From Escherichia coli (GTDB taxonomy: Bacteria; Pseudomonadota; Gammaproteobacteria; Enterobacterales; Enterobacteriaceae), in assembly GCF_003018255.1 (NCBI RefSeq), contig NZ_CP027440.1: a DNA stretch of 64,000 nt; one strand, written 5' to 3'. Every line of letters begins with the position of its first letter. Position 1 is the stretch's first letter. The translations under genes and the position numbers were made by a program. The notes below the pieces were generated by a model, which did no database searches, was not told the DNA's origin, and saw nothing but the letters and a program-made list of their open reading frames with translations. This document shows positions 1,300-52,445 of the stretch, one piece after another.

Positions 1300-2508
1300 T
1301 TAAAGGGAGCCATGCGCCTCACGCAACATTTTCTGCTCTGGCTGACGAATCGTCGTAGAGAGCGCCAGTGACAGAATCAGCAGTGCGAAAATCACGTAGA
1401 AGGTCACATAGAAGCCGCCAAACAGTGAGGCGATAATCGACCCACAAATGCTGCCGATACCGAAACCGAGATAAATCACACCGTAGTTTTTCGCCAGGTT
1501 ATTGAGGCCGAAGAACTCACTGACCAGTGACGGGAACACCGTGATAGTGCCGCCAAAGTTAAATGCCACGCAGGCAATCGCTGCAAAGAACGTCACTGCA
1601 TTCAATGGTGCAAACAGCAGGGCCGCCATACCCACCAGCGATATCACCTGACCAATGGTGATAACACGGATACGGGCGATTTTGTCAGACAGAATGCCCA
1701 GCACCAGACGACCAGAAAGGTTGGCGATGGAAATAACCGTCACAGCATTGGCTGCGGAAATTGCATCAAGATGCGCCAGACTTTGAGCGATATCTTTCGC
1801 TACACCAATCACATACAGACCACTCATGCACGCAGTCAGGAACATAACCGCTAACATCCAGTACTGCGGTTTACGCATCGACTCTGCCAGGGTGTAGTCC
1901 TTCTCCACCACACCATTGCTGGTTTTCACTTCCTGTTTTGGTGCGTCTTTCATTAATGTTGCGCCAAAGACAATCATCACCAGCGCAATCGCTCCCCAAA
2001 TCACAAAGGTTTTTTCCAGACCCACCGTTTCCAGCAGCTGCGTGTCGATAAATTTGAAACCCAGGCTACCCAGACCATAAGAACCGATAGCGAACGCGGA
2101 GATCAGACCTTTACGCTCCGGGAACCACTTCACGCAGTTAGAGAGCGTCAGCAGGTAACCCGCGCCATCCGCCAGACCGACCAGCACACCGGCGCTTAAC
2201 CACAGCATCATCAGGTTGTCAGAATGCGCTGTCAGGAAGAAGCCTAATCCCAGCAAAATGCCGGAAGCCATAGTGACGCGTTTAACGCCAAAACGTTCCT
2301 GTAATTTCCCCGCAACAGAAGATGAAATTGCCAGCCCCAGACTTAACAAGCCGAAAGAGAAAGCGACCTGGCTTACCGGCGCATCCAGCTTGGCAGAAAG
2401 CGCGCCGTTAAACAGGCTCCAGGTATAAACCGACCCAAGGGCAAACTGGGTAATGATAGTACCGATGAGTGTCAACCAGCGGGTACGCTGATAATTTGAA
2501 GGTGTCAT
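1300..2508 (-). CDS. yhjX: MFS transporter YhjX (oxalate/formate antiporter family, pyruvate-inducible)
   Basis: 417-aa ORF; 12-TM MFS-like hydrophobic protein; likely start is the internal MTPSNYQRTRW... at 2508 (402 aa). Confidence 0.9.
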   Translation of the reverse strand: MTPSNYQRTRWLTLIGTIITQFALGSVYTWSLFNGALSAKLDAPVSQVAFSFGLLSLGLAISSSVAGKLQERFGVKRVTMASGILLGLGFFLTAHSDNLMMLWLSAGVLVGLADGAGYLLTLSNCVKWFPERKGLISAFAIGSYGLGSLGFKFIDTQLLETVGLEKTFVIWGAIALVMIVFGATLMKDAPKQEVKTSNGVVEKDYTLAESMRKPQYWMLAVMFLTACMSGLYVIGVAKDIAQSLAHLDAISAANAVTVISIANLSGRLVLGILSDKIARIRVITIGQVISLVGMAALLFAPLNAVTFFAAIACVAFNFGGTITVFPSLVSEFFGLNNLAKNYGVIYLGFGIGSICGSIIASLFGGFYVTFYVIFALLILSLALSTTIRQPEQKMLREAHGSL

Positions 2509-2591
2509 GGCAGTATTCCTGCAGTAATAAAAAGGAAAAATCTCTGCTGACAACCATAACGAAGTGCACTTTATGCCTGGGGAAAAACGGC

Positions 2592-2623
2592 ATGAAATGC
2601 CATCAGAACGGAATGAAATGCAT
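2592..2623. promoter_or_regulatory. Direct repeats ATGAAATGC(C/A) upstream of yhjX, candidate YpdB response-regulator site
   Basis: Two copies of ATGAAATGCx about 22 bp apart (reverse complement GGCATTTCAT), with a third degenerate copy; matches the YpdB repeat motif as I remember it. Confidence 0.45.
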
Positions 2624-2736
2624 TAGTTCAGGAATGAATGACTCGACAATTATTCACCAAATTTATTATTTAGTAAGTTAGCACCCACTATCGCCACATT
2701 AGTTGTTATTTATTGGTTTCAATTGTATCTATAACG

Positions 2737-3441
2737 TTAAAATCTGGCGCTAACCCCCATCGTATACAGATAGTCGCTATTGTTAGTGGTATTTTCTGCC
2801 TGAGATAGCGCAGCATAGGCAGCAATATTTTGATTGAGCAACATATCAGCGCCTACGGTGACATCCAGCCAGTTGCCGTTCTGGTTTGTCGCCGTCATCC
2901 GGCTCAGGCCTGATTGCGCCTTCCAGATATTCTCGCCAAATTGCTGGTTATAGCTGATTTGCGCCCAGGGTCGGAGATCGCCAAGCCGGGAGTCAACACG
3001 CCAGCCTAAGGTACTCACGCTGGCATGCCATAACGGATCGGCCAGCGTGGTAGTACTGTCGCCAAACTCGTTATACATCGAGGTGGTTGTGCCATCGTAA
3101 TGTAATGCCGCGACCGGGCCGGTTGTAACCTGCTCATATAAAGGAAAATTCCAGCCCATACTCATACTGCTGGTCACATCCACAGGAGTTTCTTCCGCCA
3201 GATTGACTTCCAGTCCCAGCGCCCTTTGGCTACTTTGAATACGTTGCGACAAAATATCGTTGTAATCAGGTTGATGATCGCTATCCCAGGTGTAACGCTC
3301 TGTGGAATGTCCGGGTTGCGTATCAACGATATATTCTTGTTGCCAGGCGTAAGCTGTGTTGAGAAAAAAGGCACTGATTACCACACTCGCCAGCAGGCTT
3401 AGCTGCCAGCGACCACCGCTTTTTTTTATGATCATTAACAC
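2737..3441 (-). CDS. yhjY: YhjY, autotransporter-beta-domain-like outer membrane protein
   Basis: 234-aa ORF with N-terminal signal-like segment and C-terminal ...GVSARF; conserved position between yhjX and tag. Confidence 0.8.
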   Translation of the reverse strand: MLMIIKKSGGRWQLSLLASVVISAFFLNTAYAWQQEYIVDTQPGHSTERYTWDSDHQPDYNDILSQRIQSSQRALGLEVNLAEETPVDVTSSMSMGWNFPLYEQVTTGPVAALHYDGTTTSMYNEFGDSTTTLADPLWHASVSTLGWRVDSRLGDLRPWAQISYNQQFGENIWKAQSGLSRMTATNQNGNWLDVTVGADMLLNQNIAAYAALSQAENTTNNSDYLYTMGVSARF

Positions 3442-18545: not shown

Positions 18546-19868
18546 TTATTTGTCGAACAGATAATGATTTACCAGATTTTCCAGTTGCTCCTGGCGACCA
18601 CTCTGATGCACCGGAGACAAATTGTGTTCCTGAGCATATTTGGCTAAATCTGCCAGTGACATTTGGCCTTTCAGGATTTGCTGGCCTAATTCGCTATTCC
18701 AGCCGGAATAACGCTGCGCGATGCGTTTATCCAGCTCGCCATCTTCAATCATGCGTGCTGCAATTTTCAGCGCCAACGCCATCGTATCCATCGCGCCGAT
18801 ATGACCGTAAAACAGATCATATTTATCAGTACTTTGACGACGTACTTTGGCATCGAAGTTCAGACCGCCAGTGGTGAAACCGCCTGCTTTGAGAATTTCA
18901 TACATCACCAGCGCATTCTCTTCCACACTGTTCGGGAACTGGTCGGTGTCCCAGCCCAGTTGTGCATCGCCACGGTTGGCGTCGACAGAACCGAACAGGC
19001 CAAGCGCAATGGCGGTGGCTATTTCATGATGGAAAGAGTGACCTGCCAGCGTCGCGTGGTTAGCTTCAATATTCAGTTTAATCTCTTTTTCCAGACCAAA
19101 CTGTTTCAGGAAGCCATAGACCGTCGCAGCATCGTAATCATATTGATGTTTGGTCGGTTCTTGCGGTTTCGGTTCGATAAGCAACGTGCCCTGGAAACCG
19201 ATTTTATGTTTATGCTCAACCACCATCTGCATAAAGCGGCCCAGCTGTTCACGCTCCTGGCGCAAGTCGGTATTTAACAGCGTTTCGTAACCTTCACGAC
19301 CACCCCACAGGACATAGTTTTCACCGCCCAATTTATGGGTTGCTTCCATCGCTGTAACAACTTGCGTTGCCGCCCAACTGAAGACTTCAGGATCTGGGTT
19401 CGTCGCCGCACCCGCGCCATAGCGAGGGTTTGTAAAGCAGTTAGCAGTTCCCCACAGCAGCTTCACGCCGCTCTCTTCTTGCTTGCCTGCCAGGACATCA
19501 ACCATTTGCGCAAAATTATTGATGTACTCTTTTAACGACGCGCCCTCAGGGGAAACATCCACATCGTGGAAGCAATAAAATGGCACATGTAACTTGTGGA
19601 AAAACTCAAATGCGACATCTGCTTTACGCTTCGCCAACGCCAGTGCCTCACCAGGCTGCTGCCACGGACGATTAAACGCTCCCACACCAAACATATCCGC
19701 CCCGTTCCAGCAGAAGGTGTGCCAGTAGCAGGCGGCAAAACGCAAGTGCTCTTCCATACGCTTGCCCAACACCAGTTCGTCGGGATTGTAGTGACGGAAT
19801 GCTAACGGGTTTGAGGATTTTGAGCCTTCATAACGAACGCGATCGAGCTGGTCAAAATAGGCTTGCAT
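18546..19868 (-). CDS. xylA: Xylose isomerase
   Basis: ORF frame to 19880; start [28 protein letters not shown] at 19868 (440 aa). Confidence 0.97.
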
Positions 19869-20233
19869 ATTGAACTCCATAATCAGGTAATGCCGCGGGT
19901 GATGGATGATGTCGTAATATTGGGCACTCCCTTTCAGTTGCTCAATTATGTTATTTCACACTGCTATTGAGATAATTCACAAGTGTGCGCTCGCTCGCAA
20001 AATAAAATGGGATGATGAAACTGGGTAATTCCTCGAAGAGAAAAATGCAATAAGTACAATTGCGCAACAAAAGTAAGATCTCGGTCATAAATCAAGAAAT
20101 AAACCAAAAATCGTAATCGAAAGATAAAAATCTGTAATTGTTTTCCCCTGTTTAGTTGCTAAAAATTGGTTACGTTTATCGCGGTGATTGTTACTTATTA
20201 AAGCTGTCCTCTAACTACAGAAGGCCCTACACC
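19869..20233. promoter_or_regulatory. Divergent xylAB / xylFGH promoter region (XylR and CRP controlled)
   Basis: 365-bp AT-rich intergenic region between divergent xylA and xylF; individual sites not resolved by eye. Confidence 0.7.
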
Positions 20234-21226
20234 ATGAAAATAAAGAACATTCTACTCACCCTTTGCACCTCACTTCTGCTTACCAACGTTGCGGCACACG
20301 CCAAAGAAGTCAAAATAGGTATGGCGATTGATGATCTCCGTCTTGAACGCTGGCAAAAAGATCGAGATATTTTTGTGAAAAAAGCAGAATCTCTCGGCGC
20401 GAAAGTATTTGTACAGTCTGCAAATGGCAATGAAGAAACACAAATGTCGCAGATTGAAAACATGATTAACCGGGGTGTCGATGTTCTTGTCATTATTCCT
20501 TATAACGGTCAGGTATTAAGTAACGTTGTAAAAGAAGCCAAACAAGAAGGTATTAAAGTATTAGCTTACGACCGTATGATTAACGATGCGGATATCGATT
20601 TTTATATTTCTTTCGATAACGAAAAAGTCGGTGAACTGCAGGCAAAAGCCCTGGTCGATATTGTTCCGCAAGGTAATTACTTCCTGATGGGCGGCTCGCC
20701 GGTAGATAACAACGCTAAGCTGTTCCGCGCCGGACAAATGAAAGTGTTAAAACCTTACGTTGATTCTGGAAAAATTAAAGTCGTTGGTGACCAATGGGTT
20801 GATGGCTGGTTACCGGAAAACGCATTGAAAATTATGGAAAACGCGCTAACCGCCAATAATAACAAAATTGATGCTGTAGTTGCCTCAAACGATGCCACCG
20901 CAGGTGGGGCAATTCAGGCATTAAGCGCGCAAGGTTTATCAGGGAAAGTAGCAATTTCCGGCCAGGATGCGGATCTCGCAGGTATTAAACGTATTGCTGC
21001 CGGTACGCAAACTATGACGGTGTATAAACCTATTACGTTGTTGGCAAATACTGCCGCAGAAATTGCCGTTGAGTTGGGCAATGGTCAGGAACCAAAAGCA
21101 GATACCACACTGAATAATGGCCTGAAAGATGTTCCCTCCCGCCTGCTGACACCGATCGATGTGAATAAAAACAACATCAAAGACACGGTAGTTAAAGACG
21201 GATTCCACAAAGAGAGCGAGCTGTAA
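20234..21226 (+). CDS. xylF: D-xylose ABC transporter periplasmic binding protein
   Basis: ORF frame from 20156; start MKIKNILLTLCTSLLLTNVAAHA (signal peptide) at 20234, 330 aa. Confidence 0.96.
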   Translation: MKIKNILLTLCTSLLLTNVAAHAKEVKIGMAIDDLRLERWQKDRDIFVKKAESLGAKVFVQSANGNEETQMSQIENMINRGVDVLVIIPYNGQVLSNVVKEAKQEGIKVLAYDRMINDADIDFYISFDNEKVGELQAKALVDIVPQGNYFLMGGSPVDNNAKLFRAGQMKVLKPYVDSGKIKVVGDQWVDGWLPENALKIMENALTANNNKIDAVVASNDATAGGAIQALSAQGLSGKVAISGQDADLAGIKRIAAGTQTMTVYKPITLLANTAAEIAVELGNGQEPKADTTLNNGLKDVPSRLLTPIDVNKNNIKDTVVKDGFHKESEL

Positions 21227-21303
21227 GCGTTACGCCCCGGCGAGGAGCGGGGGCGTGATTTCTCTCCATGCCGTGTGAATTAATTGGCTTAGGTGGAGTC
21301 GTT

Positions 21304-22845
21304 ATGCCTTATCTACTTGAAATGAAGAACATTACCAAAACCTTCGGCAGTGTGAAGGCGATTGATAACGTCAGCTTGCGGTTGAATGCTGGCGAAATCG
21401 TCTCACTCTGTGGGGAAAATGGGTCTGGTAAATCAACGCTGATGAAAGTGCTGTGTGGTATTTATCCCCATGGTTCCTACGAAGGCGAAATTATTTTTGC
21501 GGGAGAAGAGATTCAGGCGAGTCACATCCGCGATACCGAACGCAAAGGTATCGCCATCATTCACCAGGAATTGGCCCTGGTGAAAGAATTGACCGTGCTG
21601 GAAAATATCTTCCTGGGTAACGAAATAACCCATAATGGCATTATGGATTATGATCTGATGACGCTACGCTGTCAGAAGCTGCTCGCACAGGTCAGTTTAT
21701 CCATTTCACCTGATACCCGCGTTGGCGATTTAGGACTTGGGCAACAACAACTGGTTGAAATTGCCAAGGCACTTAATAAACAGGTGCGTTTGTTAATTCT
21801 CGATGAGCCGACAGCCTCATTAACTGAGCAGGAAACGTCGGTTTTACTGGATATTATTCGCGATCTACAACAGCACGGTATCGCCTGTATTTATATTTCG
21901 CACAAACTCAACGAAGTCAAAGCGATTTCCGATACGATTTGCGTTATTCGCGACGGTCAGCACATTGGCACGCGTGATGCTGCTGGAATGAGTGAAGACG
22001 ATATTATCACCATGATGGTCGGACGAGAGTTAACCGCGCTTTACCCTAATGAACCACATACCACCGGAGATGAAATATTACGTATTGAACATCTGACGGC
22101 ATGGCATCCGGTTAATCGTCATATTAAACGAGTTAATGATGTCTCGTTTTCCCTGAAACGTGGCGAAATACTGGGTATCGCCGGACTCGTTGGTGCCGGA
22201 CGTACCGAGACTATTCAGTGCCTGTTTGGTGTGTGGCCCGGACAATGGGAAGGGAAAATTTATATTGATGGCAAACAGGTAGATATTCGTAACTGTCAGC
22301 AAGCCATCGCCCAGGGGATTGCGATGGTACCCGAAGACAGAAAGCGCGACGGCATCGTTCCGGTAATGGCGGTTGGTAAAAATATTACCCTCGCCGCACT
22401 CAAAAAATTTACCGGTGGCATTAGCCAGCTTGATGACGCGGCAGAGCAAAAATGTATTCTGGAATCAATCCAGCAACTCAAAGTTAAAACGTCGTCCCCC
22501 GACCTTGCTATTGGACGTTTGAGCGGCGGCAATCAGCAAAAAGCGATCCTCGCTCGCTGTCTGTTACTTAACCCGCGCATTCTCATTCTTGATGAACCCA
22601 CCAGGGGTATCGATATTGGCGCGAAATACGAGATCTACAAATTAATTAACCAACTCGTCCAGCAGGGTATTGCCGTTATTGTCATCTCTTCCGAATTACC
22701 TGAAGTGCTCGGCCTTAGCGATCGTGTACTGGTGATGCATGAAGGGAAACTAAAAGCCAACCTGATAAATCATAACCTGACTCAGGAGCAGGTGATGGAA
22801 GCCGCATTGAGGAGCGAACATCATGTCGAAAAGCAATCCGTCTGA
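21304..22845 (+). CDS. xylG: D-xylose ABC transporter ATP-binding protein
   Basis: ORF frame from 21268; start [14 protein letters not shown] at 21304; two ABC cassettes (Walker [10 protein letters not shown] and GLVGAGRTE). Confidence 0.96.
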
Positions 22846-26511: not shown

Positions 26512-28539
26512 ATGAAACTCGCCGCCTGTTTTCTGACACTCCTTCCTGGCTTCGCCGTTGCCGCCAGCTGGACTTCTCCGGGGTTTCCCACCTTTAGCGA
26601 ACAGGGGACGGGAACATTTGTCAGCCACGCGCAGTTGCCCAAAGGTACGCGTCCACTAACGCTAAATTTTGACCAACAGTGCTGGCAGCCTGCGGATGCG
26701 ATAAAACTCAATCAGATGCTTTCCCTGCAACCTTGTAGCAACACGCCGCCTCAATGGCGATTGTTCAGGGACGGCGAATATACGCTGCAACTAGACACCC
26801 GCTCCGGTACACCAACATTGATGATTTCCATCCAGAACGCCGTCGAACCGGTAGCAAGCCTGGTCCGTGAATGCCCGAAATGGGATGGATTACCGCTCAC
26901 ACTGGATGTCAGCGCCACTTTTCCGGAGGGAGCCGCCGTCCGGGATTATTACAGCCAGCAAATTGCGATAGTGAAGAACGGTCAAATAACGTTACAACCC
27001 GCTGCCACCAGCAACGGTTTACTCCTGCTGGAACGGGCAGAAACTGACGCCCCTGCCCCTTTCGACTGGCATAACGCCACGGTTTACTTTGTGCTGACAG
27101 ATCGTTTCGAAAACGGCGATCCCAGTAATGACCAGAGTTACGGACGTCATAAAGACGGTATGGCAGAAATTGGCACTTTTCACGGCGGCGATTTACGCGG
27201 CCTGACCAACAAACTGGATTACCTCCAGCAGCTGGGCGTCAATGCTTTATGGATAAGTGCCCCATTTGAGCAAATTCACGGCTGGGTCGGCGGCGGTACA
27301 AAAGGCGATTTCCCGCATTATGCCTACCACGGTTATTACACACAGGACTGGACGAATCTTGATGCCAATATGGGCAGTGAAGCCGATCTACGGACACTGG
27401 TTGATAGCGCGCATCAGCGCGGTATTCGTATTCTCTTTGATGTCGTGATGAACCACACCGGCTATGCCACACTGGCGGATATGCAGGAGTATCAGTTTGG
27501 CGCGTTATATCTTTCTGGTGACGAAGTGAAAAAAACGTTGGGTGAACGCTGGAGCGACTGGAAACCTGCCGCCGGGCAAACCTGGCATAGCTTTAACGAT
27601 TACATTAATTTCAGCGACAAAACAGGCTGGGATAAATGGTGGGGAAAAAACTGGATCAGAACCGATATCGGCGATTACGACAATCCTGGATTTGACGATC
27701 TCACTATGTCGCTGGCCTTTTTGCCGGATATCAAAACCGAATCAACGACCGCTTCTGGTCTGCCGGTGTTCTATAAAAACAAAACGGATACCCACGCTAA
27801 AGTCATCGACGGCTTTACCCCTCGCGATTACTTAACCCACTGGTTAAGTCAGTGGGTTCGCGACTATGGGATTGATGGTTTTCGGGTCGACACCGCCAAA
27901 CATGTTGAGTTGCCCGCCTGGCAGCAACTGAAAACCGAAGCCAGCGCCGCGCTTGTCGAATGGAAAAAAGCGAATCCCGATAAAGCGTTAGATGACAAAC
28001 CGTTCTGGATGACCGGTGAAGCCTGGGGCCACGGCGTGATGCAAAGTGACTACTATCGCCACGGCTTCGATGCGATGATCAATTTCGATTATCAGGAGCA
28101 GGCGGCTAAAGCAGTCGATTGTCTGGCGCAGATGGATACGACCTGGCAGCAAATGGCGGAGAAATTGCAGGATTTCAACGTGTTGAGCTACCTCTCGTCG
28201 CATGATACCCGCCTGTTCCGTGAAGGGGGCGACAAAGCAGCAGAGTTATTATTAGCGCCAGGCGCGGTACAAATCTTTTATGGTGATGAATCCTCGCGTC
28301 CGTTCGGCCCCACCGGTTCGGATCCACTGCAAGGCACGCGTTCGGATATGAACTGGCAGGATGTTAGCGGCAAATCTGCCGCCAGCGTCGCGCACTGGCA
28401 GAAAATCAGCCAGTTCCGCGCCCGCCATCCCGCAATTGGCGCGGGCAAACAAACGACACTTTCGCTGAAGCAGGGCTACGGCTTTGTTCGTGAGCATGGC
28501 GACGATAAAGTGCTGGTCATCTGGGCTGGGCAACAGTAA
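26512..28539 (+). CDS. malS: Periplasmic alpha-amylase
   Basis: 675-aa ORF with signal peptide MKLAACFLTLLPGFAVAAS; GH13 motifs (DVVMNH, GFRVDTAKH). Confidence 0.96.
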   Translation: MKLAACFLTLLPGFAVAASWTSPGFPTFSEQGTGTFVSHAQLPKGTRPLTLNFDQQCWQPADAIKLNQMLSLQPCSNTPPQWRLFRDGEYTLQLDTRSGTPTLMISIQNAVEPVASLVRECPKWDGLPLTLDVSATFPEGAAVRDYYSQQIAIVKNGQITLQPAATSNGLLLLERAETDAPAPFDWHNATVYFVLTDRFENGDPSNDQSYGRHKDGMAEIGTFHGGDLRGLTNKLDYLQQLGVNALWISAPFEQIHGWVGGGTKGDFPHYAYHGYYTQDWTNLDANMGSEADLRTLVDSAHQRGIRILFDVVMNHTGYATLADMQEYQFGALYLSGDEVKKTLGERWSDWKPAAGQTWHSFNDYINFSDKTGWDKWWGKNWIRTDIGDYDNPGFDDLTMSLAFLPDIKTESTTASGLPVFYKNKTDTHAKVIDGFTPRDYLTHWLSQWVRDYGIDGFRVDTAKHVELPAWQQLKTEASAALVEWKKANPDKALDDKPFWMTGEAWGHGVMQSDYYRHGFDAMINFDYQEQAAKAVDCLAQMDTTWQQMAEKLQDFNVLSYLSSHDTRLFREGGDKAAELLLAPGAVQIFYGDESSRPFGPTGSDPLQGTRSDMNWQDVSGKSAASVAHWQKISQFRARHPAIGAGKQTTLSLKQGYGFVREHGDDKVLVIWAGQQ

Positions 28540-28716
28540 CTTTTCCGGCTTCCCGTTCGTCAGTACCTCGGGAAGCCGCCAACCAGGATAAAATGTCAGA
28601 CCTAATCAGCGTTGCAGGATAAAGCACCGCTCCCTCTTCAACAGAGCGATTTGCACCCCAGCAAATGTAGCGTTATTGTTACCTTCCTTGCTACAGAGTT
28701 CGACAGATATCCCGCT

Positions 28717-29970
28717 ATGACATTCTCCCTTTTTGGTGACAAATTTACCCGCCACTCCGGCATTACGCTGCTGATGGAAGATCTGAACGACGGTTTACGC
28801 ACGCCTGGCGCGATTATGCTCGGCGGCGGTAATCCAGCGCAGATCCCGGAAATGCAGGACTACTTCCAGACGCTACTGACCGACATGCTGGAAAGTGGCA
28901 AAGCGACTGATGCACTGTGCAATTACGACGGTCCACAGGGGAAAACGGAGCTACTCACACTGCTTGCCGGAATGCTACGCGAGAAGTTGGGTTGGGATAT
29001 CGAACCACAGAATATTGCACTAACAAACGGCAGCCAGAGCGCGTTTTTCTACTTATTTAATCTGTTCGCCGGACGCCGTGCCGATGGTCGGATCAAAAAA
29101 GTGCTGTTTCCGCTGGCACCGGAATACATTGGCTACGCTGACGCCGGACTGGAAGAAGATCTGTTTGTCTCTGCGCGTCCGAATATTGAGCTGCTGCCGG
29201 AAGGCCAGTTTAAATACCACGTCGATTTTGAGCATCTGCATATTGGCGAAGAAACCGGGATGATTTGCGTCTCCCGGCCGACGAACCCAACAGGCAATGT
29301 GATTACTGACGAAGAGTTGCTGAAGCTTGACGCGCTGGCGAATCAACACGGCATTCCGCTGGTGATTGATAACGCTTATGGCGTCCCGTTCCCGGGTATC
29401 ATCTTCAGCGAAGCGCGCCCGCTGTGGAATCCGAATATCGTACTGTGCATGAGTCTTTCCAAGCTGGGTCTACCAGGCTCCCGCTGCGGCATTATCATCG
29501 CCAATGAAAAAATCATCACCGCCATCACCAATATGAACGGCATTATCAGCCTGGCACCTGGCGGTATTGGTCCGGCGATGATGAGTGAAATGATTAAGCG
29601 TAACGATCTGCTGCGCCTGTCTGAAACAGTCATCAAACCGTTTTACTACCAGCGTGTTCAGGAAACTATCGCTATCATTCGCCGCTATTTACCGGAAGAT
29701 CGCTGCCTGATTCATAAACCGGAAGGAGCCATTTTCCTCTGGCTATGGTTTAAGGATTTGCCCATTACGACCGAGCAGCTCTACCAGCGCCTGAAAGCAC
29801 GGGGCGTGCTGATGGTGCCGGGGCACAACTTCTTCCCAGGGCTGGATAAACCGTGGCCACATACACATCAATGTATGCGCATGAACTACGTGCCGGAGCC
29901 GGAGAAAATTGAGGCGGGTGTGAAGATTCTGGCAGAAGAGATAGAAAGAGCCTGGGCTGAAAGTCACTAA
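28717..29970 (+). CDS. avtA: Valine--pyruvate aminotransferase
   Basis: ORF frame from 28612; start MTFSLFGDKFTRHSGITLLMEDL at 28717 (417 aa). Confidence 0.93.
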   Translation: MTFSLFGDKFTRHSGITLLMEDLNDGLRTPGAIMLGGGNPAQIPEMQDYFQTLLTDMLESGKATDALCNYDGPQGKTELLTLLAGMLREKLGWDIEPQNIALTNGSQSAFFYLFNLFAGRRADGRIKKVLFPLAPEYIGYADAGLEEDLFVSARPNIELLPEGQFKYHVDFEHLHIGEETGMICVSRPTNPTGNVITDEELLKLDALANQHGIPLVIDNAYGVPFPGIIFSEARPLWNPNIVLCMSLSKLGLPGSRCGIIIANEKIITAITNMNGIISLAPGGIGPAMMSEMIKRNDLLRLSETVIKPFYYQRVQETIAIIRRYLPEDRCLIHKPEGAIFLWLWFKDLPITTEQLYQRLKARGVLMVPGHNFFPGLDKPWPHTHQCMRMNYVPEPEKIEAGVKILAEEIERAWAESH

Positions 29971-29975
29971 AAATT

Positions 29976-30075
29976 GCCTGATGCGCTACGCTTATCAGGC
30001 CTACATGATTTCTGCAATATATTGAATTTGGTAGAATTTGTAGGCCGGATAAGGCGTTTTAGCCGCATCCGGCAT
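29976..30075. repeat. REP/BIME palindromic units between avtA and ysaA
   Basis: GCCTGATGCGCTACGCTTATCAGGCCTAC and GTAGGCCGGATAAGGCG...CGCATCCGGCA match REP consensus. Confidence 0.8.
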
Positions 30076-30121
30076 AAACAAAGCGCACTATCCCTGCGTT
30101 GAGAAACGCCGGAAAAACGTT

Positions 30122-30601
30122 TCAAACAGGCTGCTGCCGTAGCCGATGTCGCTGCACTTTCTCGACATCCATGCACTGCAACGCCTTTGTCGGGCAGGCT
30201 TCAACACAGGCCGGTCCCGTCGCCCGATGCCAGCACAGATCGCACTTAATCGCCCTCGCCTTTTTGCGCGAAGAAACGACCTCCATCGCACCAAACGGGC
30301 AAGCCAGCATACAGCTTTTACAGCCAATGCAACGTGATTGTTCAACGAAAATATGCCCATGTTCGCGGCTTATCGCGTCAACAGGGCAGACATTCGCGCA
30401 CGGTGCATCTTCACACTGATGGCAGGCTACAGCCGTGGTCCATGTGTGGTCTTTAATGACACGAATACGGGAAATAAACTCGTCTGGTGACAACGCAGCG
30501 CAATCCTGATTCTCCTGATGCGACACTGCGCAAGCCACTTCACAGGTACGGCAACCGATACATTTCGTCGCATCCGCAATAATAAACCGGTTCATGATCA
30601 C
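30122..30601 (-). CDS. ysaA: 4Fe-4S ferredoxin-type electron transport protein YsaA
   Basis: 159-aa ORF with several CxxCxxCxxxC(P) clusters; true start may be MNRF at 30595. Confidence 0.88.
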   Translation of the reverse strand: MIMNRFIIADATKCIGCRTCEVACAVSHQENQDCAALSPDEFISRIRVIKDHTWTTAVACHQCEDAPCANVCPVDAISREHGHIFVEQSRCIGCKSCMLACPFGAMEVVSSRKKARAIKCDLCWHRATGPACVEACPTKALQCMDVEKVQRHRLRQQPV

Positions 30602-30696
30602 TCCTTTGCACTAAAACAGCAGAGTGCCAGAGAGCGCGTCTCTACTGCTTTGATCCAACGAAGGAAATGTTAAAGTTTTGGCACTTGTCCAAAGCG

Positions 30697-31545
30697 TTAT
30701 GTGATCGCGCCCTGGTCGTCCCTGACAGTAAATCCCAGTTCATTAGAAATAGCCTGCGCGGTTTCACGCAGTGGTTTCAGGAGATTTTTCTCCCCCACCT
30801 GTTTCAGACGTGATGTCGAAAGCGAAATCGACACGGCGTACGGCACCCGCCCATGAATATCAAACACCGGAACAGCAATACAGGAGACGCCGAGTTCGTT
30901 TTCTTCTCTGTCCATCGCCGCTCCGCTTTCACGAATGTGCGCCAGTTCGTCGAACATCGCGGGCAGCTCGGTAATGGTATTGCGGGTTAACGGCTGGATC
31001 TCATGCTGATGGCTTTCCCAGTATGACTTCACGTAGTCCGGGTGGCCAAACGCCATGTAGATCTTGCCCATTGCGGAACAGTAGAGCGGCATATGCTGGC
31101 CAATATAGGCACGGGTTCGCAGCATCCCGGTTGTGGGTTCCAGCTTATAAATCAAAATAGCGTGATCGTCTTCGCGGCTGGAGAAGTTAATAGTTTCACC
31201 AGTGGCGATGTTCAGTGCCTCAAGATGCGGAGCGGCGATATGAATGATATTCAGCGAAGACAGCGCCTTCTGCCCGACGGCAATAAATTTGGTGGTCAGG
31301 CGATAACTCCCTGCGGCGGGCGCGGTGGTCACATAGCCGCAGGATTGTAATCCCTGCAATAAGCGATGGACGGTACTCTTATTTAAACCAGCCAGCTCCG
31401 AAAGATGCGCCAACGGACAACCGTTTGGATAGTTGCTCAAAATCTCAATCAGCATCAACCCGCGAAACAGACTCTGGCTTCCGGCTGGACGCTCTTTTTC
31501 CTGCGCCATCTCGTTCTCTTTTTTTCCCATCACTTCTTTCCCCAT
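30697..31545 (-). CDS. yiaJ: IclR-family transcriptional repressor YiaJ
   Basis: 282-aa ORF; N-terminal HTH; divergent from yiaK. Confidence 0.92.
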   Translation of the reverse strand: MGKEVMGKKENEMAQEKERPAGSQSLFRGLMLIEILSNYPNGCPLAHLSELAGLNKSTVHRLLQGLQSCGYVTTAPAAGSYRLTTKFIAVGQKALSSLNIIHIAAPHLEALNIATGETINFSSREDDHAILIYKLEPTTGMLRTRAYIGQHMPLYCSAMGKIYMAFGHPDYVKSYWESHQHEIQPLTRNTITELPAMFDELAHIRESGAAMDREENELGVSCIAVPVFDIHGRVPYAVSISLSTSRLKQVGEKNLLKPLRETAQAISNELGFTVRDDQGAIT

Positions 31546-31573
31546 TTTGTCGCGTCAAGATGGTAGCGCAAAG

Positions 31574-31589
31574 TGTGTCGTAGTTCACG
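31574..31589. promoter_or_regulatory. CRP-like site TGTGT-N6-TCACG in the yiaJ/yiaK divergent promoter region
   Basis: Close match to TGTGA-N6-TCACA; a direct repeat of AAAAGCGATC also lies further downstream. Confidence 0.5.
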
Positions 31590-31745
31590 ATCTCGACAGA
31601 TAATTTATAACCACTTGATTTTTAAGTTTTTTGAAATTCATCAATCAGATTGCTTTGTTAAAAAGCGATCGATATATTTGAAATCAGATTTCGCATATTG
31701 AAATTTTAAGCCAAAAAAGCGATCAAAAAAACAAGGAAGCCAGGG

Positions 31746-32744
31746 ATGAAAGTGACATTTGAGCAGTTAAAAGCAGCCTTTAATCGAGTCTTAATTTCAC
31801 GCGACGTTGACAGCGAAACGGCTGATGCCTGTGCCGAAATGTTCGCCCGCACCACCGAATCCGGCGTTTATTCTCACGGCGTCAACCGTTTCCCTCGTTT
31901 CATTCAACAACTGGAAAACGGAGATATCATTCCTGATGCCCAACCCAAACGTATAACCAGCCTCGGCGCAATTGAACAGTGGGACGCCCAGCGTTCGATC
32001 GGTAACCTGACAGCGAAAAAGATGATGGATCGCGCCATTGAACTGGCTGCCGATCACGGTATTGGTCTGGTGGCACTACGTAATGCCAACCACTGGATGC
32101 GCGGCGGCAGCTACGGCTGGCAGGCGGCGGAAAAAGGCTATATTGGCATTTGCTGGACCAACTCCATCGCCGTAATGCCGCCGTGGGGCGCAAAAGAGTG
32201 TCGCATCGGCACTAACCCGCTGATCGTCGCCATTCCTTCTACCCCAATCACCATGGTCGATATGTCGATGTCGATGTTCTCTTACGGCATGTTAGAAGTT
32301 AACCGTCTGGCAGGCCGTCAGCTCCCGGTCGATGGTGGCTTTGATGATGAGGGCAATTTGACCAAAGAACCTGGCGTTATCGAGAAGAATCGCCGCATTT
32401 TGCCGATGGGTTACTGGAAAGGTTCGGGCATGTCGATTGTGCTGGATATGATCGCCACTCTCCTTTCTGACGGCGCATCGGTTGCCGAAGTCACCCAGGA
32501 CAACAGCGACGAATACGGCATTTCACAAATTTTTATTGCCATTGAAGTAGATAAGCTTATCGACGGCCCCACCCGCGATGCCAAACTGCAACGCATCATG
32601 GATTACGTTACCACCGCTGAACGCGCTGACGAAAATCAGGCCATTCGCTTACCCGGCCACGAATTTACTACCCTGCTGGCCGAAAACCGCCGTAACGGTA
32701 TTACCGTTGATGACAGCGTGTGGGCAAAAATCCAAGCGTTATAA
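31746..32744 (+). CDS. yiaK: 2,3-diketo-L-gulonate reductase
   Basis: 332-aa [25 protein letters not shown]...; first gene of yiaK-sgbE operon. Confidence 0.93.
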
Positions 32745-48222: not shown

Positions 48223-49761
48223 TCAGAACAGCCCCAACGGTTTATCCGAGTAGCTCACCAGCAGGCACTTGGTTTGCTGGTAATGCTCAAGCATCATCTT
48301 GTGGGTTTCGCGTCCGATGCCCGACTGTTTGTAGCCACCAAACGCCGCATGTGCCGGGTAAGCGTGATAACAATTGGTCCACACGCGCCCTGCCTGTATG
48401 CCGCGCCCCATCTTATAGGCAAGATTACCGTTGCGGCTCCAGACGCCCGCGCCCAGGCCATATTGCGTATCGTTCGCCAGCTCCAGCGCTTCTTCCATCG
48501 TTTTGAAGGTGGTCACCGCCAGCACCGGGCCAAAAATCTCCTCCTGGAACACGCGCATATTGTTCTGACCAAACAAAATCGTCGGTTCGAGGTAGTAGCC
48601 GTCTTTCAGTTCACCTTCCAGCAGCTTGCGCCGCCCGCCAGTGAGCACGTCTGCGCCCTCTTTTTTACCGATATCAATGTAGTTGAGGATGGTTTCCAGT
48701 TGCCCGTGAGAAACCTGCGCCCCCATTTGCGTCACGCTGTCGAGCGGGTTACCGCTGCGAATGCTTTCGACACGGCGGATGGCGCGTTCCATAAAGCGTT
48801 CGTAGATAGACTCCTGCACTAAAGCACGGCTTGGACAGGTGCAAACTTCGCCCTGGTTAAAGGCAAACAGTGCAAAGCCTTCCAGCGCTTTATCGAAAAA
48901 GGCATCTTCTTCATCCATTACGTCAGCAAAGAAGATATTTGGCGATTTGCCACCCAGCTCCAGCGTCACCGGAATAATGTTTTGCGTGGCGTATTGCATA
49001 ATTTGTTGGCCCACTTCCGTTGAGCCGGTAAACGCCACTTTGGCGATGCGTTTCGAGGTCGCCAGATATTCGCCAATTTCCCCACCTGCGCCGTTGACCA
49101 CGTTCACCACGCCCGGCGGCAGTAAATCACCGACGATTTCCATTAGCAGCAGTACAGAAAGCGGGGTAAGACGTGCGGGTTTCAGCACCACACAGTTGCC
49201 CGCCGCCAGCGCGGGAGCCATTTTCCAGCTCGCCATCAGCAGCGGGAAGTTCCACGGAATAATCTGCCCCACCACGCCTAACGGCTCATGGAAATGATAG
49301 GCCACGGTTTCGCTATCAACTTCACTGATCCCACCTTCCTGCGCCCGAATACACGAGGCAAAATAGCGAAAATGATCAATCGCCAGCGGCACATCAGCAG
49401 CACTGGTTTCGCGAATGGGTTTGCCGTTATCCCAGGTTTCAGCGGTCGCTAACAGTTCAAGGTTTTGTTCCATTCGATCGGCAATCTTAAACAGAATCGC
49501 CGCACGATCCTGCACCGAGGTGTGCGCCCATTTATCTTTCACTTTGTGCGCAGCATCCAGCGCCAGATCGATGTCTCGTTTGCCCGAAGACGCCACTTCG
49601 CACAGCAGCTGCCCGGTCACCGGCGTCAGGTTCTGGTAATACTCGCCATCGGCAGGCGCTACCCATTCGCCACCGATAAAGTTGTCGTAGCGGGCTTTTA
49701 ATTTGAGGGGGAAACCATACTCGCCGGGCTTAATCTGTGCTGAAGGGGGATTATTGGTCAT
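48223..49761 (-). CDS. aldB: Aldehyde dehydrogenase B
   Basis: ORF frame to 49851; start [33 protein letters not shown] at 49761 (512 aa). Confidence 0.95.
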
Positions 49762-49868
49762 GATCGTCTCCTTGCGGTGTGAGGTATAACAAGGGTAGAC
49801 GTGACTGGCGAAATCTTCGCCAGTCGGTAACAGCTTTACGACGGCTATCACGAATTTACGGGCAAAAG

Positions 49869-51164
49869 CTACAGCGGGTAGTGTGCGACGTACACGGCTT
49901 GCTGGTTATTAATTCTTTTCTCTTGCGCGAATCCTTCTTTAACAATTGTCCGTAAATCAGCTCGAGCCGTATTATCAGAGACGCCCAAGCTCGCGCTAAT
50001 TTCAGCAACTGTGTACTCTTTCCCCGGATTGGCGAGCATCACATTCAGGAGCGTTACCTGGCGCGGATTCAGGCGTTTAAGCACACCAGAGCTAAACAGC
50101 ACACTATCGAGTTTTGCGCTTCGTTGTGTAATTTCATCGATATGCTGCTGCCAGTTTTGCAGAGCACGTTTAATGACACCCGCCTGATATTCAAGGAAAT
50201 AAGTCAGATCCATACCATCTGATTCAGTGTACTGGTAGCTGGCGGCATATTTGACCGGTGCAGCATGAAGCAAACGGCTGATGGAAATATATTTAAAGAC
50301 ATCGTAGCCCGATTTCAGCATATACCAGTAAAACAGCGCCCGACTGGTGCGCCCGTTGCCATCGCGAAACGGATGTTCATGGGCCAGCATAAAATGCAGA
50401 ATGCAGGCACGGACCAACGGATGAATATACCCTTCATGGCTGTTTAACCACTGGCAAACTTTTTCCAGCCGTTCCGGTAACAATGCCGCAGCGGGCGGTT
50501 GATGCACTATATTGCCATCATAGTCGGCGATCACAACATCATCTGTTTCACGAAATTCTCCCGGACGATATTTCGCGTCATTGATTCCACCCATACCAAT
50601 GGCATGTAACTGGCGAATAAGCGCAGGTGTCAGCGGTTCTGCGAGTAAGTGCGGAATTTCCGCCATCAGCCGGGCATTTCCCGCAATCATATGCTCGTCT
50701 TCAGTGCGTGGCGACCGCCCTGTTTCCAGCATTTTTCTCGCCACCAGCGTTGTAGTATTCGCACCTTCCAGTTGGGAACTGGTGATCGGCTCTTCCAGGC
50801 GTAACTGACTTAACTCGGCGCCCGCCCCGCGTAACCGTTCAGTCTGATCTTTCAGCGCCAGTGCAGTGGCATGTTTATCAACAAGCTCGCACGCTTCTGC
50901 AATCACCGGCGTAATGTTGAATCCGGCCTGTTCACCCGCTTCATTGCAATAATTAATTCGTTGGATCGCCGCGTTGCGCGCCAGACGGGTAAGCGTCCAC
51001 GCCACATCGACGTTTTCTCCTTTTTTGATGCGGTACTGCAGCTCATCAAAAGGCAGATAACGTCCTTTTTCATCGGTAACCCGGTTAAAGCGCAGGTGGG
51101 CCAGGAGTTCCTCACCCGATAAGTGTGATAAAGGAATAAGTCCGGGAGGTGATTTGATAGCCAT
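49869..51164 (-). CDS. Fic-domain protein (putative AMP-transferase) with N-terminal inhibitory-helix-like motif and probable C-terminal winged-helix domain; accessory
   Basis: 431-aa ORF containing canonical Fic motif [12 protein letters not shown] and upstream SSQLEG matching [ST]xxxE[GN]; not between aldB and yiaY in K-12 as far as I recall. Confidence 0.8.
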
Positions 51165-51167
51165 GTG

Positions 51168-51250
51168 CTTATCTCAAAAAAGCGCAATATTGAGATAGTG
51201 TATAGCAGGAAAGAGAAACTATCTCAAAAATCGCAAATTTTGAGATAGTT
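51168..51250. promoter_or_regulatory. Two palindromic sites upstream of the Fic gene, candidate autoregulatory operator
   Basis: Perfect 13-bp arms AACTATCTCAAAA / TTTTGAGATAGTT with 8-bp spacer (51217-51250) and an imperfect copy TATCTCAAAA...TATTGAGATA (51170-51197). Confidence 0.5.
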
Positions 51251-51280
51251 TAAAAAATGGCTGACAATTAGACAGCCATT
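51251..51280 (-). terminator. Rho-independent terminator of yiaY
   Basis: Hairpin ATGGCTG-ACAATTAGA-CAGCCAT, preceded on the plus strand by AAAAAA (T-run on the minus strand). Confidence 0.6.
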
Positions 51281-51293
51281 GTGGGAATGATGA

Positions 51294-52445
51294 TTACATC
51301 GCTGCGCGATAAATCGCCATAATTTCTTCGTGAGTTGCCTGAATCGGGTTAGTAAACCCACACGCATCTTTCAGGGCATTGGTTGCCAGCACTGGAATAT
51401 CTTCTTCTTTCACGTTCAGGTCACGCAGGCCTGCCGGGATATTCACTTTCTTCGCCAGTTCACGGATGGCATTGATGCACGCTTCTGCGCCTTCCGCGTC
51501 ATTTTTGCCTGTCACGTTAACGCCCATGGCAGCAGCACAGTCACGCAGACGCGCAGCAGCGACTTTGCTGTTGAACACCTGAACGTGTGGCAGCAGAACG
51601 GCATTACATACACCATGTGGCAGGTTGTAGAAACCGCCCAGTTGGTGCGCCATCGCATGAACATAACCAAGAGATGCGTTGTTGAATGCCATGCCAGCGA
51701 GGAACTGGGCATAAGCCATTGCTTCACGCGCTTTAGCATTGCTGCCATCTTCAACGGCTAACGGCAGGTTTTCGGCAATCATGGTCACGGCTTTCAGTGC
51801 GCAAGCGTCAGTGATCGGCGTGGCGGCAATAGAAACATACGCTTCGATAGCGTGCGTTAAGGCATCCATACCCGTTGCGGCGGTCAGTGACTTCGGCATA
51901 CCGACCATCAGAGATGAGTCATTGACAGAAAGCAACGGAGTTACATGTTTATCAACAATCGCCATTTTGATATGACGCGCTTCGTCAGTGATGATGCAGA
52001 AACGGGTCATTTCAGAGGCCGTACCCGCCGTGGTATTGATGGCGATCATCGGCAGCTGCGGTTTTGCAGAGCGGTCAACGCCTTCGTAATCGCGAATATC
52101 GCCGCCATTGGCTGCCACCAGCGCAATACCTTTTGCGCAGTCGTGCGGAGAACCACCGCCTAAGGAGATCACGCTATCGCAATTATTTTCTTTAAGTAAT
52201 TTTAAACCTTCGGCGACGTTTTCCGTGGTGGGGTTAGGTTGGGTGCCATCATAAATAACGCTAAAAATATTGCGTTCTTCCAGTGCTTTTTGCACATCAC
52301 CCGCCATACCCAATTTCGTTAACATGTTGTCGGTGACAATTAAGGTACGGGTAAATCCATAATCTGCCATCATATTCATTGCATCATTCAATGAATCAGC
52401 ACCAATAACATTCACGGAAGGAATAAAAAAGGTTGAAGCTGCCAT
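51294..52445 (-). CDS. yiaY: Iron-containing alcohol dehydrogenase YiaY
   Basis: 383-aa [29 protein letters not shown]...; group III Fe-ADH. Confidence 0.93.

Follow-up and report, generated by a model that had tools for sequence, protein, structure and literature searches.

Between aldB and yiaY, which are immediate neighbours in Escherichia coli K-12, other E. coli strains carry a gene for a Fic-domain protein, and this locus raises two questions: how did the strains come to differ here, and what does the protein do? We addressed both in a 64,000-nucleotide stretch of E. coli DNA (contig NZ_CP027440.1; hereafter the window, to which coordinates refer unless stated otherwise), in which the gene is an ATG-initiated open reading frame (ORF) of 431 codons at 49869–51164 on the minus strand. 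The best explanation for the whole, to which we give a probability of about 0.6, is that the gene encodes a dimeric, self-repressing class II Fic enzyme with a winged helix-turn-helix (wHTH) domain, acting as a SoFic-like stress or abortive-infection module. It is very likely that the gene is ancestral at this position in Escherichia and was deleted in ~70% of E. coli, K-12 included. RefSeq already annotates a Fic family protein, and defence-finding software would label it SoFic; a literature search combining aldB, yiaY and Fic returned nothing relevant to the locus. The new elements are the polarity of the deletion, an operator model and a caution for defence censuses, and they do not overturn the current understanding of Fic enzymes.

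The gene lies between aldB (48223–49761) and yiaY (51294–52445), and all three are co-directional. Over the Fic stretch the window is identical (100%) to E. coli strain JNE23-011, in which RefSeq names the product 'Fic family protein' (WP_001562279.1), and the coding sequence is further supported by Pfam, AlphaFold and substitution-rate evidence given below. An initial annotation of the window, made from the letters and an ORF list, had reported the 431-residue ORF, its catalytic motif and an SSQLEG motif, all of which can be read directly from the sequence. It had also stated that K-12 has aldB and yiaY adjacent, which is borne out in MG1655, where aldB (b3588) and yiaY (b3589) are neighbours without a Fic gene. 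It overlooked two autoregulatory operators, an extra N-terminal domain and the tie to the SoFic/CccR group. The Fic gene is solitary, as the initial annotation had noticed: the gaps of 107 nucleotides (nt) on the aldB side and 129 nt on the yiaY side contain no candidate partner, and neither holds a coding-strand ORF of at least 20 amino acids, the other ORFs there being out-of-frame or overlapping. We considered as an antitoxin a 50-residue out-of-frame ORF overlapping the Fic 3’ end and rejected it; in a comparison of six alleles and homologues, stop codons break it up in CFT073 and in E. albertii, and other genera lack it.

Domain architecture of the Fic protein

A profile search identified the Fic core domain (Pfam PF02661, E=1.7e-19) at residues 177–281 (50322–50636, minus strand), and the domain is present in all 35 family members examined. 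The catalytic motif, residues 264–275 beginning with H264 (50340–50375, minus strand), was read from the sequence and fits HxFx[DE]GNGRxxR. In an alignment of 35 homologues with identities down to 41%, H264, P265, F266, D268, G269, N270, G271, R272 and R275 are invariant. Alignments also place an inhibitory motif, S129-S-Q-L-E133-G134 (50763–50780, minus strand), at the end of helix 114–132. This motif fits [ST]xxxE[GN] and lies 130 residues ahead of H264 in the same polypeptide; S129, Q131, L132, E133 and G134 are invariant across the homologues and S130 nearly so. A phmmer alignment sets E133 opposite the inhibitory Glu234 of human FICD, the best sequence match to the Fic core (E=3e-12), and an hhalign comparison (probability 98.4%, residues 109–431) sets it opposite E70 in the SSRIEN motif of EcSofic. 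By homology, E133 is predicted to sit at the gamma-phosphate site of ATP. The initial annotation had described an auto-inhibited AMP-transferase. The auto-inhibition agrees with the intramolecular motif and with the alignment of E133 to FICD E234 and EcSofic E70, but 'AMP-transferase' is too narrow, because the characterised relatives with an inhibitory glutamate are bifunctional AMPylase/deAMPylases. Some Fic-fold proteins are kinases or phosphocholine transferases.

Structure prediction from the alignment of the homologues gave the Fic fold and winged helix in a single model (AlphaFold2; predicted local distance difference test score 89.6, predicted template modelling (TM) score 0.84), which matches SoFic, CbFic2 and FICD. 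The top Foldseek matches are the SoFic structures 3zcn, 3eqx and 3zec (E ~5e-12, TM 0.68–0.72 on the target), aligned over ~352 columns that include the wHTH, and further matches include CbFic2 (8cil), 4rgl, 7cb8, 7xux and FICD, with a probability of 1.00 to many Fic structures. The matches to 3zcn, 3eqx, 8cil and 7xux extend over the full length. The C-terminal wHTH spans residues 361–427 (49884–50084, minus strand), as judged from the model, Pfam and Foldseek, with a putative recognition helix at 396–408. In the model it consists of helices 367–378, 386–393 and 397–409 and strands 413–417 and 423–427. Pfam matches to HTH families over residues 361–414 are weak, with HTH_DeoR found in 14 of the 35 members and SoFic-like_C in three. 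Within the putative recognition helix, N398 is nearly invariant and T399 and A400 are invariant among the 35 homologues.

Two further regions precede the inhibitory helix. Residues 1–85 (50910–51164, minus strand) form an N-terminal domain of three helices and a beta-hairpin that is conserved in, and specific to, the subfamily; SoFic, EcSofic and CccR do not have it, and it is without a solved structural relative. It is followed by a helical region at residues 86–111 (50832–50909, minus strand), predicted either as two helices, 86–98 and 101–111, or as a single helix, 86–109. From the model and from a profile alignment (the PADLOC SoFic profile aligns from residue 96, profile position 30), this region is a candidate equivalent of the SoFic dimerisation helix, a role suggested by analogy to SoFic and EcSofic. 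The palindromic operators described below imply a dimer. Overall, the protein falls into class II of the Fic classification of Engel et al. (2012) and carries a winged helix at its C-terminus, the layout seen in SoFic, CccR, CbFic2 and EcSofic.

Operators and predicted autoregulation

The 129 nt between the Fic start codon and yiaY hold, from the yiaY side, the yiaY terminator, a distal operator (O2), a putative promoter and a proximal operator (O1). Both operators are exact matches to TATCTCAA-N12-TTGAGATA, for which 0.2 matches would be expected in the whole window, and they lie 50 bp apart. O1 (51170–51197; no mismatches) is situated between the -10 element and the start codon. O2 (51216–51251) is a perfect palindrome with 14-nt arms, AAACTATCTCAAAA-N8-TTTTGAGATAGTTT, whose core at 51220–51247 overlaps the -35 element. 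The window contains no further operator copy except for one match with three mismatches, TATGTTAT-N12-TTGAGATA at 19947–19974, which lies between the divergent ORFs 18546–19880 (minus strand) and 20156–21226 (plus strand) and is probably due to chance.

The putative sigma-70 promoter (51199–51227, minus strand), read from the sequence, consists of a -35 element TTGAGA (51227–51222), a 17-nt spacer and a -10 element TATACA (51204–51199). An equivalent arrangement, TTGAGA or TTGCGA followed after 17 or 18 nt by TATAAC or TATACT, is present in four homologous loci (L005, L006, L007 and L011). On its other side, an inverted repeat with the stem AATGGCTG/CAGCCATT followed by a run of T forms the intrinsic terminator of yiaY (51250–51280, minus strand), which is also found in genomes lacking the Fic gene and which isolates the putative Fic promoter from yiaY transcription. 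A terminator scan scored O2 itself as a 'terminator-like' hairpin. We rejected this assignment: O2 is duplicated, is conserved before homologues elsewhere and lies downstream of the real yiaY terminator. An Rfam scan of the intergenic regions at E≤1 found no known RNA family.

The position of O1 relative to the gene is also conserved. Enterobacterales homologues have an O1-type palindrome ~30 nt ahead of the start codon; its gene-proximal arm (TTGAGATA) stops 5–8 nt before that codon (51165–51197 in the window; loci L005–L013). The only Shine-Dalgarno-like element is a GAGA within this arm, so that the predicted repressor, once bound, would also mask the DNA that encodes the ribosome-binding site. 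The full two-operator layout, including O2, is conserved in E. albertii, Pseudescherichia, Salmonella and Leclercia, with a TATAAC, TATACT or TATACA hexamer right before the proximal operator.

We then compared 80 homologous loci, one genome per species, drawn from other genera and unrelated genomic contexts. In 23 of them, CTCAA-N10–12-TTGAG is found no more than 160 nt ahead of the start codon (25 matches); elsewhere in these loci there were three matches in 641 kb, and 1.8 were expected in all. The sequence flanking CTCAA varies by clade, being ctatCTCAA in the close Enterobacterales, tcacCTCAA in the Siccibacter group and tcaaCTCAA in Alloalcanivorax. Pseudomonas has the half-site variants gctcaa and attcaa, Campylobacterota have AACTCAAA, and Bacteroidota relatives have palindromes of other sequence at the same position. 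Small changes beside the invariant NTA(R) of the recognition helix, such as D versus E before NTAR, accompany the half-site changes. The covariation between recognition helix and half-site is only suggestive, with several loci giving no clean recognition-helix extraction.

The closest precedent for this operator architecture is CccR of Yersinia pseudotuberculosis, a repressor of its own promoter that acts through palindromes close to -35 and -10 and whose dimer holds its recognition helices 70.2 Å apart (PMC9755527). The half-sites of the operators described here are ~20 bp apart centre to centre, or ~68 Å, which fits the helix separation of the CccR dimer. SoFic also binds the 100-bp stretch in front of its own start codon, and it does so only as a dimer (bioRxiv 10.64898/2026.07.09.737422). 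We therefore predict with high confidence, from the sequence, that the protein is an autorepressor acting through O1 and O2. Taken jointly, the architecture, the class II status and the autoregulation are highly likely to be correct. What results is an operator model for a large Fic-wHTH subfamily, with CTCAA-N10–12-TTGAG as the site and two sites 50 bp apart bracketing a putative promoter. The cloned upstream region of EcSofic (construct SG63, from E. coli H397) also contains repeated palindromes, GTGTCGAT...ATCGACAC, every ~60 nt (bioRxiv 10.1101/2022.05.11.491447), and operator-based autoregulation may thus be general in Fic-wHTH proteins.

At the other end of the gene, no terminator-like site was predicted within the 107-nt gap that separates the Fic stop codon from the start of aldB (49762–49868), and Fic transcripts may thus read through into aldB in strains that carry the gene.

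History of the aldB–yiaY locus

The initial annotation had the gene inserted between aldB and yiaY, and a comparison of junctions across E. coli reverses this. Among 5426 complete E. coli genomes, 1572 have the full locus, 3159 have a K-12-type junction, 576 have a junction like that of THO-008, and a few have other rearrangements, for example IS1-associated ones. The aldB–yiaY intergenic length is 1532 bp in the window, 164 bp in K-12 and 200 bp in THO-008. When the window was aligned to K-12 and THO-008 across the junctions, the segment missing in K-12-type genomes was found to be 1368 bp long (49875–51242). The K-12 junction reads ...GGGCAAGGGTTACAG|AGATAGTTGAAAAAGCGGCT..., and the scar, AGATAGTT, brings the last two Fic codons including the stop (plus-strand CTACAG) directly up against the outer half of the O2 arm that faces yiaY. 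The THO-008 scar has the same left breakpoint, with its right end at ~51192 in the equivalent arm of O1 and an extra 14-bp loss; O2 is whole, and 1332 bp are deleted. Both junctions are deletion scars: at a site that had never received the gene, one would expect neither a Fic stop codon nor operator halves from which a perfect palindrome can be completed. As both types have the left breakpoint in common, the K-12 type may have arisen from the THO-008 type when the 50-bp repeat collapsed.

The gene itself has the features of a long-standing resident. E. albertii carries a 96%-identical protein directly upstream of aldB with both operators kept; compared with the window, its Fic gene shows a synonymous divergence (dS) of 0.30 and its aldB gene one of 0.41. 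The G+C content of the gene (50.5%) is close to that of the window (50.9%). The ratio of nonsynonymous to synonymous divergence (dN/dS) is 0.02–0.19 among E. coli alleles and 0.06–0.08 against E. albertii, and these low values indicate a functional gene in the strains that have kept it. The closest homologues outside Escherichia are only 77% identical. These data correct the polarity of a common gene-content difference in E. coli: K-12 and ~70% of strains are deletion mutants with operator remnants.

An alternative is that a selfish, toxin-antitoxin-like mobile cassette landed between aldB and yiaY recently. In favour of this, the gene is polymorphic for presence within E. coli, and in other genera homologues are found on an integrative and conjugative element (ICE), a satellite and plasmids. 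However, the Fic stop codon and operator remnants persist in genomes without the gene, the E. albertii gene occupies the same site with a dS near that of aldB, and no integrase, insertion sequence or direct repeat is found at the borders. Given also the near-window G+C content and the distance to the nearest homologue outside Escherichia, we consider a recent arrival very improbable, and the ancestral gene lost by deletion is the reading we carry forward. We also rejected origins in particular elements. A tblastn search of 50,697 phage records gave no match covering at least 80% of the protein, with a best identity of 36%, and the PHROGs matches of the protein were to function-unknown families only. 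The best plasmid match was 61% identical, on a Rahnella megaplasmid, and there was none on E. coli plasmids.

Several observations at individual loci add to this picture. In E. coli CP131_Sichuan (positions 2248–3112 of the extracted locus), IS1A lies beside yiaY with glyS on its other side and the aldB side is gone; this IS1-associated rearrangement is a third route of Fic loss. The K-12 deletion places the yiaY terminator ~110 nt upstream of aldB. In CFT073 (NC_004431.1, 4170000–4219000), the Fic gene is at positions 20951–22246 of the extracted locus, between aldB and yiaY. CFT073 lacks yiaT–yiaW, so that araD comes directly before aldB, unlike in the window. We take upaG to be c4424 in this strain. 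From the gene order relative to upaG, the CFT073 Fic gene is very probably the c4409 knocked out in a chemoproteomic study of 2020 (PMC9558369).

Relatives, proposed function and alternatives

The PADLOC SoFic model PDLC03963 matches the protein over residues 96–427 (profile positions 30–351 of 361; E=1.1e-43, 148 bits). The validated member of this group in E. coli, EcSofic, is likewise a single-gene class II Fic protein with the motifs SxxxE[GN] and HPFxDGNGR and a wHTH-type domain at its C-terminus. Homology between the two proteins extends from the inhibitory helix through to the C-terminal end; they are matched by the same PADLOC model, and both are preceded by palindromes. EcSofic differs in having 358 residues rather than 431, without the ~85-residue N-terminal domain, and in having a 47-residue downstream antitoxin, AS1 (PMC12249575), for which there is neither room nor a conserved ORF at aldB–yiaY. 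It is toxic in an H194-dependent manner (Wu et al. 2025, PMC12249575), and its construct SG63 is marked 'v' in the screen table of Millman et al. 2022, which we read as protective (bioRxiv 10.1101/2022.05.11.491447).

SoFic itself (SO_4266/MloA of Shewanella oneidensis) is the best structural match and shares the Fic core, the wHTH and the inhibitory glutamate; it dimerises through an N-terminal helix and binds upstream of its own gene, as is predicted for the protein studied here. It differs in sequence (17–18% identity), in lacking the extra N-terminal domain and in that its EF-Tu switch I target and its bifunctionality have been measured; the protein studied here misses the SoFic equivalog cut-off. 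SoFic AMPylates switch I of EF-Tu, blocks translation and constitutively reverses the modification (bioRxiv 10.64898/2026.07.09.737422). CccR is a Fic-wHTH protein that, as a dimer, represses itself through palindromes with widely spaced half-sites around -35 and -10, and its toxin and regulator activities are separable: it AMPylates FtsZ at Thr8 and is secreted by a type VI secretion system (T6SS; PMC9755527). In contrast to the protein studied here it has 380 residues and no N-terminal domain, and it relies on a single palindrome with a long spacer, where the present gene has two 28-bp operators at a distance of 50 bp; its secretion and FtsZ target also set it apart, and we find no T6SS link at aldB–yiaY.

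More distant comparisons help to place the protein further. CbFic2 of Coxiella burnetii (8cil) and FICD/HYPE are class II enzymes with an inhibitory glutamate and both AMPylase and deAMPylase activity, and in CbFic2 DNA binding mediated by the HTH switches between the two activities (PMC10628234). They differ in their targets, histone H3 and BiP, in their cellular settings and in the TPR accessory domain of FICD, and they are not, as far as shown, autoregulators of a bacterial chromosomal gene. E. coli FicT/FicA (fic–yhfG) is a Fic AMP-transferase from the same species that is also restrained by a glutamate-bearing inhibitory helix. However, it is class I, with that helix on a separate antitoxin, whereas the present protein carries it on its own chain and has no partner gene; FicT also lacks a wHTH, and in CFT073 the loci are distinct (c4136 versus c4409). 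The gene belongs to the class II Fic-wHTH group of the Fic superfamily; to judge from its sequence the protein works as SoFic and CccR do, and it is an orthologue of neither.

Homologues span diverse phyla, including an archaeal metagenome-assembled genome, and their settings differ. The Pseudescherichia homologue lies between ordinary chromosomal genes. A Salmonella relative is within an ICE, and a Photorhabdus relative is beside ParE/Phd and HicAB. In Klebsiella, a homologue (49% identity) lies within a P4-like satellite or prophage, directly after a gene for a DUF927 primase-like protein and close to Bro-N and AntA genes. Phage P4 carries its gop-beta-cII exclusion genes at the position after the primase.

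We propose the following model, in which a dimeric class II Fic enzyme is fused to a winged-helix DNA-binding domain. The inhibitory helix carrying E133 precedes the core, which has every catalytic residue; in relatives this glutamate blocks productive ATP binding and catalyses de-AMPylation. Each operator would be occupied by one dimer, which would cover the -35 element at O2 and, at O1, the transcription start together with the ribosome-binding site. Relief of autoinhibition and repression would lead to AMPylation of an abundant essential protein and hence to growth arrest, and the same active site could reverse the modification. The N-terminal domain would be a sensor or a target adaptor, and it is the obvious place to seek an activating signal. 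Toxin, antitoxin helix and repressor would then be combined in one polypeptide, a single-gene module fixed in the chromosome.

The functional parts of this model carry different weights. By analogy to SoFic and EF-Tu, CccR and FtsZ, and the toxicity of EcSofic, we give about even odds to growth-arresting AMPylation of an endogenous target. An anti-phage role is more tentative, and by analogy to its relatives we can suggest it as a possibility against which we lean somewhat. The PADLOC SoFic match, the relatives on a satellite, on an ICE and in a toxin-antitoxin cluster, and the presence/absence polymorphism in E. coli are consistent with such a role. A broader and rather unlikely idea is that the proteins of 431–455 residues (at least 1000 clusters at 50% identity) form a distinct, phylum-spanning Fic-wHTH subfamily whose N-terminal domain senses a phage protein or stress signal and releases both autoinhibition and autorepression. 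If true, this would be an immune module combining sensor, toxin, antitoxin and repressor in one polypeptide, with a target other than EF-Tu or FtsZ, and the presence and deletion alleles of E. coli would form a natural test set.

A number of results weigh against a self-repressing, SoFic-like defence module. The promoter hexamers are weak and were missed by a consensus scan (the -10 element lacks the final T). The PADLOC score of 148 bits compares with 407 for the validated EcSofic, to which identity is only 23%, and the NCBIfam SoFic equivalog NF046030 scores 39.3 bits where 550 are required. In the screen table, another EcSofic-type construct, SG64 (KTE165), bears an 'x', which we read as not protective (bioRxiv 10.1101/2022.05.11.491447), and this suggests that defence may not be universal even among close relatives of SoFic. 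SoFic in its wild-type form is a constitutive deAMPylase, and the net activity of the protein in vivo could therefore be removal of AMP rather than its addition. The E. coli neighbours are core metabolic genes rather than a defence island, and vertical inheritance under strong purifying selection is less typical of fast-turnover defence genes. These points also call for caution in defence censuses, as one distant SoFic relative of ~23% identity would credit 29% of E. coli genomes with a 'SoFic system'.

Several of the same observations would suit a housekeeping regulator that reversibly AMPylates an endogenous translation or division factor under stress and acts as a transcription factor on its own and possibly on other promoters, with no phage role. 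Long vertical inheritance at a core locus with a dS like that of aldB, strong purifying selection and genome-typical G+C content all agree with this, as do the position outside a defence island and the Pseudescherichia homologue among ordinary genes. So does the biochemistry of relatives, SoFic being an efficient constitutive deAMPylase that binds its own promoter and CbFic2 being switched by DNA. However, ~70% of E. coli do without the gene and show two or more types of scar, relatives occur on satellites, ICEs and in toxin-antitoxin clusters, and the single three-mismatch site is all that the window offers a regulator beyond O1 and O2. On balance we consider a purely housekeeping role less likely than not, though nearly as probable as an anti-phage role, and a SoFic-like stress or abortive-infection module remains the explanation we favour.

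Delivery by a T6SS is another precedent set by CccR, and an interbacterial effector of this kind would modify FtsZ with AMP in rival cells or serve kin as a transcription factor. The Fic-wHTH layout is shared with CccR, as would be autorepression through palindromes, the probable CccR structure (7xux) is among the structural matches, and an Rhs toxin locus lies ~5 kb away. However, CccR lacks the N-terminal domain and is a distant match (7xux, E=1.6e-11, residues 122–289), no T6SS, VgrG, PAAR or adaptor genes are nearby, and the family is spread over diverse phyla including the archaeal genome, and we give this idea very little credence. A host-directed virulence AMPylator like VopS or IbpA in extraintestinal pathogenic and enterohaemorrhagic E. 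coli lineages is more improbable still: ST131, CFT073, Nissle and O157:H7 have the gene and K-12 does not, but it is also found in commensal and animal isolates, it has no secretion signal or associated secretion system, an inhibitory glutamate with an autorepressor domain is typical of intracellular bacterial enzymes, and CFT073 wild type and c4409::Km gave no reproducible host AMPylation in infected HeLa cells (PMC9558369).

The Rhs locus is represented in JNE23-011, where a frameshifted Rhs core-domain gene and an Imm57-family immunity gene lie between yibF and yibH (positions 27104–32537 of the extracted locus), ~5.6 kb past yiaY. It is a further variable toxin locus in the vicinity of the Fic gene.

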